6,362 nucleotides of DNA from a virus. Lineage: Duplodnaviria > Heunggongvirae > Uroviricota > Caudoviricetes. The first letter of the stretch is position 1. Each line of letters begins with the position of its first letter. A program made the position numbers and the translations under genes. Shown here one piece after another: positions 3,654 through 5,318 of the stretch. The notes beneath the pieces are model-generated. The model was given only the letters and a program-made list of their open reading frames with translations. It was not told where the DNA came from and did not search any database. Location of the stretch: IMG/VR virus record IMGVR_UViG_2700989510_000024; one strand, 5' to 3'.

Positions 3654-3732
3654 CAGAGGATGGGACTCTCTTGGTTTTTTGTTGATGCTTTCTGAGGAAA
3701 TCTACTACGTTGCTGAGCAGATGAATATTCAA

Positions 3733-3760
3733 TTGCATCTGGGTTCCTGATAAGATTAAT
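3733..3760 (+). promoter_or_regulatory. putative sigma70-like promoter upstream of the lipoprotein gene
   Basis: TTGCAT (3733-3738), a 16-nt spacer, then ATTAAT (3755-3760), about 30 nt upstream of the ATG at 3788. Hexamer match only; weak. Confidence 0.25.
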
Positions 3761-3787
3761 CTGAATATTTTCATTTGGAATAGGGAT

Positions 3788-4930
3788 ATGAATAAAACTT
3801 TAATTGCAACATTAGTCGGTATAGTAATGTTAACCGGATGTGGGCCAGAAGAGTTAACTCCAGAACAGAAACAGGAAGTAGCGGCTCTTAAAGCTGAACT
3901 GTCGCAAACGGAAGGTGAAATATCAGCAGCTAAGGAAGTTGACCAGCAGTTTTCTGGTGGGTTGATAAAAAATCTGACAACAGCAAGACTGGAAATATTA
4001 GGAACTAATAAAGCGCTTTTGGAACAGCGTATTAATGCTATTGAATCAGGTGCCAAAATTGATGTTGTTGTATCTGGAGTAAAACCTGATCCTGAGCTTG
4101 CGGCTTCAATTAAAACTGAAATTGACAGCTTAGATGCAAAAATCAACGAAGCCAAAGCTGATGCTCGTCAGTATAGTGGTGGTCTGATAAAGGTACTAAA
4201 ATTATCTACTGTTGCCACTGAAGAGCAGACCATGGCAATGTTGCAGCAAAAGTACCTCACAGCCAAGTATGGCCTCGCTGAAGTTAAGCTGGCATCAGTA
4301 CAAGATAATGACGCAAAAAACAGTACTGAAACGGAAGTAACAGCCAAAAATTCCCAAGGGCAACTTCCTTTACTCCCGCCAGCGGATGGTCCGTTTGGCT
4401 TAGAAGCCGGTCTTACACAGAAAAACATCGAAGATATGATCGGTGCTAAGCTCAAGCCACTACCAGACAGTGTGAATCTGTATACTTCTGATAAATTACC
4501 GAAGCAAAACGCAGATTTTGAAATGTATGGTTTGTTGATCTCCCCGAAAGCTGGTTTATGTCAAATACGGGCTTTAGGAAAAAATATTGATACTGATAGC
4601 TATGGATTGGCTCTTAAATCCAAGTTTGAAGAATTGAGTAATTCTTTAAGTTCTCTGTATGGAAAGGCTGATACTACAGACTTTTTGCTGGCTGGTTCAA
4701 TTTGGAAAGATCCTCAGGACTGGATGAGGGGGCTAAACAAAAAAGAACGCTTCTTATCTGCCACATGGAAGGGAACAAAAGAAATACCATTAAAAAACAA
4801 TATCGATACTATCTCTATTGAGGCCAGAGCGAACAATTCCACTCAGGGATATGTCTATCTGCAGTACTCATTTACAAATGACGAAATTTGTCAGGAAGAA
4901 ATTGAAGGGGCGAAAAAAAGTTCCCTTTAA
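3788..4930 (+). CDS. predicted lipoprotein (380 aa) with a coiled-coil-like N-terminal region and an unassigned C-terminal domain
   Basis: The N-terminus MNKTLIATLVGIVMLTGC has a positively charged start, a hydrophobic core and an L-T-G-C lipobox with Cys at residue 18. The residue after the Cys is Gly, not Asp. The mature region contains a diverged internal repeat (QFSGGLIKNL and QYSGGLIKVL). The gene is noticeably more AT-rich than the flanking replication and regulatory genes. No family recognised. Confidence 0.75.
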   Translation: MNKTLIATLVGIVMLTGCGPEELTPEQKQEVAALKAELSQTEGEISAAKEVDQQFSGGLIKNLTTARLEILGTNKALLEQRINAIESGAKIDVVVSGVKPDPELAASIKTEIDSLDAKINEAKADARQYSGGLIKVLKLSTVATEEQTMAMLQQKYLTAKYGLAEVKLASVQDNDAKNSTETEVTAKNSQGQLPLLPPADGPFGLEAGLTQKNIEDMIGAKLKPLPDSVNLYTSDKLPKQNADFEMYGLLISPKAGLCQIRALGKNIDTDSYGLALKSKFEELSNSLSSLYGKADTTDFLLAGSIWKDPQDWMRGLNKKERFLSATWKGTKEIPLKNNIDTISIEARANNSTQGYVYLQYSFTNDEICQEEIEGAKKSSL

Positions 4931-4942
4931 ACAATCCGTGCA

Positions 4943-4972
4943 AAGCCCCTTAGTAAGGGGCTTTTATATATT
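4943..4972 (+). terminator. rho-independent terminator downstream of the lipoprotein gene
   Basis: Inverted repeat AAGCCCCTTA (4943-4952) and TAAGGGGCTT (4954-4963), with a GC-rich core, followed directly by TTATATATT. It lies 13 nt after the TAA stop at 4928-4930. Confidence 0.7.
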
Positions 4973-4994
4973 AATGTTCAACGGGGGGGATTAG

Positions 4995-5318
4995 ATGAAA
5001 GATAATCTAGAAAAACTAATTGAAAATACTTTAAAAGATATTCTATTAGCTAATGCTGCTCTAACATTCATTTTTGCAATACCAATGGCTATTATCAGTA
5101 GGCATGGGATGGGCATCACAATCTGGTTTATAACTGTGCTCATTGCACCTGCTCTGTGTGCAGTAGGTGCATGGCTTGTATCTCGAACATTCGGCCATGC
5201 TGAGGAGTTCTTTCATCGTCGGTGGGCTAAGCGAATCTATGTTTTTTATACTCTTGCGGCTGCCGAGTTTTTGCTTGTGTACTCAATCGCGCAAATAATG
5301 AAAAATCTGATGAAATAA
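4995..5318 (+). CDS. small integral membrane protein (107 aa, about three predicted transmembrane helices)
   Basis: ATG at 4995 preceded by the G-rich run GGGGGGGA (4983-4990). Three hydrophobic segments: LANAALTFIFAIPMAII, ITIWFITVLIAPALCAVGAWLV and IYVFYTLAAAEFLLVYSIAQI. AT-rich like the adjacent lipoprotein gene. No family recognised. Confidence 0.6.
   Translation: MKDNLEKLIENTLKDILLANAALTFIFAIPMAIISRHGMGITIWFITVLIAPALCAVGAWLVSRTFGHAEEFFHRRWAKRIYVFYTLAAAEFLLVYSIAQIMKNLMK

Follow-up and report, generated by a model that had tools for sequence, protein, structure and literature searches.

Within the 6,362 nucleotides of viral DNA analysed here (IMG/VR record IMGVR_UViG_2700989510_000024, class Caudoviricetes; hereafter the window), an AT-rich insert carries two plus-strand genes. 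The first encodes a lipoprotein of 380 aa and the second, beyond an intrinsic terminator, a protein of 107 aa with three hydrophobic segments centred near residues 25, 50 and 91 by hydropathy (Table 1). The surrounding element is, by its gene content and attachment site, a phage-inducible chromosomal island (PICI) of Escherichia coli, and the two genes sit between backbone genes of this island, with PerC on one side and a 55-aa gene on the other. An initial annotation, made from the letters alone, had read both open reading frames (ORFs), their position between backbone genes and the three hydrophobic segments in the same way. We propose that the insert is a moron-type cassette whose lipoprotein excludes superinfecting phages by acting on genome injection, a reading to which we give a probability of about 45%.

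Table 1. Coordinates of the cassette, its parts and its flanking backbone genes in the window
Feature	Position (nt)	Strand	Basis or detail
Accessory island, insert relative to empty PICI variants	3655-5512	+	alignment with locus L003 (strain 83972)
Lipoprotein gene, 380 aa	3788-4930	+	ORF, lipobox, repeats, AlphaFold2, homologs, dN/dS
Signal peptide and lipobox LTGC, residues 15-18	Cys18 at 3839-3841	+	
Tandem helical-hairpin N-domain, aa 24-161	3857-4270	+	
Variable disordered linker, aa 162-199		+	
Alpha/beta C-domain (~180 aa), aa 200-380	4385-4927	+	
Candidate extended -10 promoter	3728-3756	+	-35-like TTCAAT 3728-3733, TG 3748-3749, -10-like TAAGAT 3751-3756
Intrinsic terminator between the two genes	4942-4964	+	fold energy against shuffles
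107-aa membrane-protein gene	4995-5318	+	ORF; hydropathy; 17 homologs; dN/dS 0.12-0.21
Non-coding tail of insert	5319-5512	.	within the inserted block by comparison with L003
PerC-family regulator gene, left backbone flank	3366-3653	+	Pfam PF06069, E 1.3e-31
55-aa and 90-aa genes, right backbone flank	5597-6033	+	directly after PerC in empty variants

The N-terminus of the 380-aa protein conforms to the lipobox pattern [LVI][ASTVI][GAS]C (MNKTLIATLVGIVMLTGC). All of 24 homologs keep Gly17 and Cys18, and almost all keep Leu15, in agreement with the lipobox proposed in the initial annotation. Under the established Lol +2 rule, with Gly rather than Asp at position +2, the protein should be anchored in the outer membrane and face the periplasm. 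Its AlphaFold2 model consists of four long helices (residues 25-161), a disordered stretch (164-203) and an alpha/beta domain (204-380), with a mean pLDDT of 66 at full length and of 81.8 when the C-domain is modelled by itself. An internal duplication accounts for the helical part (repeat alignment score 76 vs 27 ± 5 for shuffles), with an SGGLIK turn in each repeat. Across the lipoprotein family, hypervariability is confined to the linker. Two cysteines in the C-domain are invariant among homologs and would be compatible with a periplasmic disulfide.

The cassette is optional, compositionally foreign, under purifying selection and bounded by a terminator. When the window is aligned with the colinear PICI of strain 83972, homology ends at window position 3654 and restarts at about 5513, with 25 bp replacing 1,858 bp, and it is this break that defines the island. 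The earlier description of a real AT-rich insert was thus correct, while its extent, given as 3654-5318, had to be redrawn. In strains 83972 and IMT5155 the colinear PICIs lack the cargo, and PerC is followed directly by genes of 55, 90 and 175 aa; further relatives carry a different module after PerC. Of 5,426 complete E. coli genomes, 113 contain the 1,665-bp region first described, each at an identity of at least 99%, and RefSeq labels both genes in those genomes as hypothetical proteins. The adjacent ProQ/PerC backbone, in comparison, is found in 321 genomes at 80-100% identity. The cargo is variable, as had been expected, and is therefore not invariably present in related elements.

Base composition also sets the cargo apart from its flanks, as the initial annotation had noted. 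GC content is 0.399 over the whole insert, 0.402 in the lipoprotein gene (0.328 at third codon positions, GC3) and 0.386 in the membrane-protein gene (GC3 0.324), vs 0.589 in ProQ, 0.559 in PerC (GC3 0.58-0.68 for these two) and 0.486 in the primase gene. In comparisons with Klebsiella and Citrobacter copies, the ratio of nonsynonymous to synonymous substitution rates (dN/dS) is low in both the lipoprotein (0.05-0.08) and the membrane protein (0.12-0.21), indicating purifying selection on both genes. Of the features in the Juhala/Hendrix definition of a moron (PMC3594210), the cassette displays presence/absence polymorphism with clean junctions, deviant base composition and its own terminator. 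We consider it very probable that the cassette is horizontally mobile accessory cargo.

The terminator consists of a 10-bp stem, a 3-nt loop and a U-rich tail (UUUUAUAUAUU). Its folding energy of -14.5 kcal/mol (z = -3.27) was matched by 0 of 200 shuffles, consistent with the strong terminator originally assigned to the lipoprotein gene. The native promoter presumed for the cassette did not hold up equally well: a generic consensus scan returned no site of at least 9/12 upstream of the lipoprotein gene, leaving a conserved extended -10-like box. This box, TGATAAGAT (3748-3756), is of the TGnTAGGAT type and ends 31 nt before the lipoprotein ATG. Of 12 diverged copies from PICIs and prophages, 10 share the TGnTAGGAT/TAAGAT box almost unchanged and at a fixed distance from the ATG, and the sequences upstream of it are unrelated among these copies. 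A promoter-like box that travels with the gene across unrelated contexts and a terminator behind the gene would be moron hallmarks, and the two signals look like those of a portable transcription unit.

The two genes had been described as one module, which proved true in one direction only. The 107-aa protein has just 17 homologs, and its gene lies directly downstream of a 380-aa lipoprotein gene in all five kinds of context retrieved. Most lipoproteins of the family, in contrast, occur without it: homologs at or below 68% identity have no such partner in Enterobacter PICIs, Klebsiella satellites, Pantoea chromosomes or prophages. (Two 107-aa genes near the Pantoea locus are unrelated to the window membrane protein.) The lipoprotein is the core of the cassette and the 107-aa protein a lineage-specific partner. 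In some Klebsiella loci the pair is followed by further genes of 266 and 194 aa.

Across Enterobacterales, 320 word-indexed homologs of the lipoprotein were found, and a profile search raised the family to 2,848 cluster representatives at 50% identity, in which the two domains are also found separately. Family members are mostly located on mobile elements and extend to environmental Proteobacteria (Shewanella, Litorilituus and Geopseudomonas). The commonest form is the C-domain alone, preceded by an ordinary signal peptide whose end lies immediately ahead of a GPFGLEMG motif. The N-domain is also joined to other C-terminal regions, among them a VasI domain and that of one protein annotated as peptidoglycan-binding; a Pfam scan of 44 proteins with the N- or C-domain fused elsewhere yielded one VasI match and two marginal ones. 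Source annotations of the homologs are all hypothetical, apart from a single automated label of "TolA-binding protein".

Genomic contexts of these relatives were collected through 12 exact-protein look-ups and one IMG/VR scan with the C-domain profile, which returned 45 loci from a collection biased towards viral regions. After the ORFs of these loci had been called and clustered, tape-measure genes were tagged by similarity to PHROG-verified ones, and loci were grouped at a target-protein identity of at least 90%. The family is strongly linked to tape-measure genes, one of which lies near the lipoprotein relative in 12 of 24 lineages, mostly within ~2 kb. Complete siphophage modules place the homolog 40-680 bp upstream of the tape-measure gene, among genes for major head, portal and major tail proteins, G/T chaperone, tape measure and gpM/L/K-like proteins. 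At loci L058 and L054, for example, major head, portal, major tail and lipoprotein genes are followed 40-79 bp on by the tape-measure gene, and at L056 the lipoprotein gene stands ahead of the G/T chaperone, tape-measure and gpM/L/K-like genes. Other arrangements include a lipoprotein gene between tape-measure and gpM-like genes, amid other exported proteins (L055), and a stand-alone C-domain gene after the tape-measure gene (L064 and L065).

Where contexts were not filtered for viral sequence, six of eight were mobile or variable islands (a PICI, a satellite, two small integrative elements, an island resembling an integrative and conjugative element (ICE), and a transposase-rich island with a TIR-domain gene) and two were ordinary chromosome. 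Stand-alone C-domain genes are cargo of the small integrative elements and ICE-like islands. One such gene, in Litorilituus (L010, 6035-6859), adjoins a gene for a CAP12/PCTIR TIR-domain protein; another, in Geopseudomonas (L011, 14034-14507), lies in a seemingly ICE-like island with ART-PolyVal, UvrD-like helicase and RNase_T. In Enterobacter PICIs with a backbone like that of the E. coli PICI EcCIMP1, the lipoprotein homolog is the first gene after pri; the window has pri, ProQ and PerC ahead of its lipoprotein gene. Published work on PICIs describes the stretch that follows pri as a hotspot of immune genes, including Tai (He et al., PMC11364771). In Klebsiella satellites, the slot right after the lipoprotein gene holds a membrane protein of the Imm_superinfect family (PF14373) or another small lipoprotein.

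Neither cassette protein belongs to a family we could recognise, in keeping with the initial annotation. Neither had a credible match in profile searches of Pfam, PADLOC, PHROGs and NCBIfam (PADLOC-DB 2.0 returned 0 families at E <= 1), and the libraries showed no homology of the cassette proteins to the Llp, Cor, TraT, Ltp or Imm_superinfect families. A search of PDB sequences with the family profile found designed coiled coils only, and a fold search of the full-length model against the PDB found generic helical hairpins only. The C-domain had one weak match in BFVD, to an unannotated Erwinia phage lipoprotein (TM-score 0.51). A literature search under the protein accessions found no paper. 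No earlier description of the protein family, of its two-domain architecture or of its tape-measure linkage appears to exist, although accessory cargo of PICIs, morons in tail operons and exclusion lipoproteins are all known kinds of system.

Because its prophage relatives adjoin the tape-measure gene, the lipoprotein would probably form a new kind of barrier to phage DNA entry. Genomic context gives the cassette roughly even odds of being anti-phage, and it points only tentatively to the tape measure as the target. The PICI very probably acquired the cassette horizontally, into the accessory region downstream of its replication genes. Under superinfection exclusion, the lipoprotein would be made from its own weak extended -10 promoter while the element is quiescent. 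A lipid-anchored stalk of two helical repeats, extended by a flexible linker, could then display the conserved alpha/beta head in the periplasm. There the head may bind the tape measure or ejection proteins of an incoming siphophage and block genome entry, with the 107-aa inner-membrane protein as a possible lineage-specific helper.

A broader and more doubtful proposal makes the lipoprotein the founding member of a very widespread and so far undescribed family of periplasmic "injection traps". In prophages, linkage to the resident tape-measure gene would be maintained to keep exclusion specificity in step with it. PICIs would have taken up the gene as a transferable form of immunity, to which enterobacterial PICIs may have joined a dedicated inner-membrane partner.

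Several observations weigh against exclusion at genome injection. No phenotype is known for the cassette, and the gene is missing from EcCIMP1, the one PICI using this attachment site for which a superinfection phenotype has been reported. For that reason its phenotype is not transferable to the window element, and its unexplained superinfection immunity was dropped as support. Neither the profile libraries nor the PDB and BFVD revealed sequence or fold similarity to a known exclusion or defence protein, and tblastn of three family members against 50,697 cultured phage genomes found no homolog. All phage-borne copies are predicted prophages from the viral-context-biased IMG/VR collection, the window's own PICI has no tape-measure gene, and some homologs occupy ordinary chromosomal neighbourhoods. 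The empty promoter scan also counts here, and the size of the family would fit a more general periplasmic role as well.

The closest parallel is the HK97 moron gp15, for which exclusion is proven: it blocks genome injection, with a specificity that maps to the phage tail region (Cumby et al. 2012, reviewed in PMC3594210). Its gene, HK97 gene 15, was the first moron to be described. The gp15 gene likewise adjoins the tape-measure locus, as do the lipoprotein homologs in siphophage modules, and it shares with the cassette a foreign composition, its own signals and an envelope protein as product. Both gp15 (YebO family) and the lipoprotein family have chromosomal homologs outside prophages. However, gp15 is a small inner-membrane protein with no evident homology to the window protein, a 380-aa lipoprotein with two periplasmic domains, and it sits at the tape-measure locus, whereas the window copy is carried by a satellite that has no tape-measure gene. 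A second parallel is Ltp of the Streptococcus thermophilus phage TP-J34, an exclusion lipoprotein that has been proposed to block DNA injection through the tape measure. Ltp is likewise lipid-anchored, built of tandem helical repeats and encoded by a temperate element. It differs in being a Gram-positive and much smaller protein with a different repeat fold, encoded in the lysogeny module and not next to the tape-measure gene.

Llp (T5), Cor (phi80/N15) and the Lpp proteins of mEp phages are, like the window lipoprotein, lipobox proteins of resident elements; these receptor-masking proteins exclude incoming phages. Llp and Cor measure about 60-80 aa. The window lipoprotein is five times larger than Llp, Cor and Lpp, has no homology to them, and its genomic linkage is with tape-measure genes, not with genes for receptor-binding proteins. 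Llp and Cor inactivate FhuA (PMC3594210), and the mEp Lpp proteins, a precedent for exclusion lipoproteins encoded within the structural gene cluster, exclude phages grouped by a shared outer-membrane receptor, OmpA or LamB (PMC11893012).

Tai systems occupy the same element type and the same accessory region downstream of pri as the window cassette, and went unrecognised by PADLOC and DefenseFinder when they were found (PMC11364771). They act on the tail assembly of the infecting phage and have homologs in phi80 and other phages, whereas the window protein is exported; tblastn of the window protein against the 50,697 phage genomes was empty, the Tai sequences themselves not being compared directly. 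Imm_superinfect proteins, small membrane proteins found beside a lipoprotein homolog in the same slot of Klebsiella satellites, offer a positional likeness to the 107-aa protein, which has no PF14373 match.

Alternatively, the cassette could encode a host-fitness or virulence factor with no action on phages, conferring serum resistance, adhesion or envelope-stress tolerance in the manner of Bor, Lom or TraT. Such genes are frequent on PICIs and among prophage morons, and envelope morons with non-phage roles are noted in the moron review (PMC3594210). The cassette's position next to a PerC-family regulator and its presence in pathogenic lineages (O104:H4 C227-11 and enterotoxigenic E. coli, ETEC) would suit this explanation. 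Pfam and NCBIfam, however, show no similarity to the Bor, Lom and TraT families, the relatives in Shewanella, Litorilituus and Geopseudomonas carry the family beyond pathogens, and the tape-measure linkage is left unexplained, so we regard a fitness role as unlikely. We rate equally low the prospect that the lipoprotein is a periplasmic protective or orphan immunity protein, carried on mobile elements against type VI effectors, colicins or muralytic enzymes, an explanation that again leaves the tape-measure linkage unaccounted for.

Less likely still is a role in the element's own transfer, through masking of receptors or entry factors on lysing cells or through aid to satellite or helper entry. 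T5 Llp also spares progeny particles by masking receptors on lysing cells. A transfer function would be in line with the P22-like ejection proteins and lytic transglycosylase encoded after pri or PerC in EcCIMP1 and the ETEC elements, and with the full tape measure of Klebsiella satellites. Yet an exported lipoprotein is no virion component, and this one is dispensable in colinear PICIs and has its own terminator and promoter-like signals instead of being embedded in an operon; nor does transfer explain the tape-measure linkage. A lysis cassette, in which the 107-aa protein (comparable to the lambda S holin in size and in its three hydrophobic segments) would serve as class I holin and the lipoprotein, whose coiled-coil region bears a superficial resemblance to spanins, as its spanin-like partner, was rejected as highly improbable: no endolysin gene lies nearby, the 107-aa protein has no charged C-terminal tail, the lipoprotein is not a short or anchored spanin (it has a globular head and no C-terminal membrane segment) and mostly occurs without the membrane protein and inside tail operons, no PHROG lysis family matches, and the tape-measure linkage is again unexplained.

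Barriers to phage genome entry at the envelope are far less catalogued than cytoplasmic defence and are missed by current defence-finding tools. If superinfection exclusion by the lipoprotein is correct, a large cross-phylum family would join the short list of Gram-negative exclusion mechanisms, and exported morons adjoining tape-measure genes would provide a genetic rule for further finds. The stretch of accessory genes that follows pri in PICIs would then provide immunity at the envelope in addition to immunity inside the cell, and in phage therapy against E. coli and Klebsiella such cassettes could silently narrow host range. If the cassette is not anti-phage, it would still represent a large uncharacterised periplasmic domain family on mobile elements, worth naming.

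The host element is known in full from a 100%-identical copy of the window in E. coli strain N1420 (locus L001), where it spans ~14.5 kb and is integrated at a tRNA-Thr gene downstream of or adjacent to proA. Its genes run from the integrase through a 265-aa gene, an AlpA-like helix-turn-helix (HTH) protein, AntA/B, YlcI, an Icd-like protein and small ORFs to DUF4222, a D5_N/DUF5906 primase, ProQ/FinO and PerC. The lipoprotein and 107-aa genes come next, followed by the 55-, 90- and 175-aa genes, the last encoding an HTH protein with weak similarity to terminase small subunits, and by a 3' cargo pair. We defined PICIs by a tRNA-site integrase, an AlpA-type regulator, a primase module and a length of ~10-20 kb without capsid or lysis genes; the element has the tRNA-adjacent integrase, the AlpA-type regulator and the primase/replication module. 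It also shares its attachment site with EcCIMP1, an experimentally proven PICI (PMC11773190). The satellite nature given in the initial annotation is thus upheld by the backbone genes as PICI-type. A P4-like satellite was rejected because psu, delta and sid are missing from the annotation and the backbone (AlpA-like HTH, primase and PerC) is of the PICI type.

Further features of the window lie outside the cassette or at its edge. The gene for a ProQ/FinO-family RNA-binding protein (2827-3369; PF04352, E 9e-23), located between a putative origin and PerC, is frameshifted in strains 83972 and IMT5155. The gap between the primase and ProQ genes (2458-2826) has a GC content of 0.29. An 11-nt iteron, GGTAGACAGTT, recurs in it at least eight times, in both orientations, and its copies flank an AT-rich palindrome (2626-2671); this region is probably the replication origin of the satellite. 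An antisense ORF of 66 aa (5381-5581, minus strand) is annotated in RefSeq across the right-hand junction of the insert. It has no family match, and two minus-strand promoter-like sites fall inside it rather than upstream, so it is probably not a gene. An Rfam search of the window gave no match. The last 127 bases (6236-6362) are the end of an IS66-family element, ISEc8-like and present in thousands of copies in E. coli, which in the source genome of the window disrupts the 175-aa HTH gene (start 6136) that is intact in N1420.

Related satellites hold cargo of other kinds. After pri or PerC, EcCIMP1 (L009, 5481-10649) and loci L021 and L022 (6891-10291) encode P22-like DNA-ejection proteins, DUF2824/DUF2213 proteins and a lytic transglycosylase; since ejection proteins and transglycosylase recur at this position, satellites of the group repeatedly carry entry-apparatus proteins. 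Klebsiella-type satellites (with AntA, DUF4222 and a DUF927 or Toprim primase) encode a full-length tape measure of 900-1,200 aa downstream of the replication genes (L019, 10789-13584; L057, 9226-12834; L043-L051; L061), that of L057 matching phrog_1107 at E 2e-294. We know of no described case of a satellite-borne tape measure. The 3' end of the PICI family forms a second variable cargo slot (L001, 17500-19107; L002, 11450-13406; L003, 9780-11768; L020, 7756-9248; L073, 9305-10741). Its contents include proteins of phrog_13337 and phrog_8999, both without assigned function; an AAA ATPase with DUF4435, a pair that we take to be PARIS-like; a 662-aa RNA-binding-domain protein; DUF4747 with a 199-aa protein; and a SEFIR/TIR protein.

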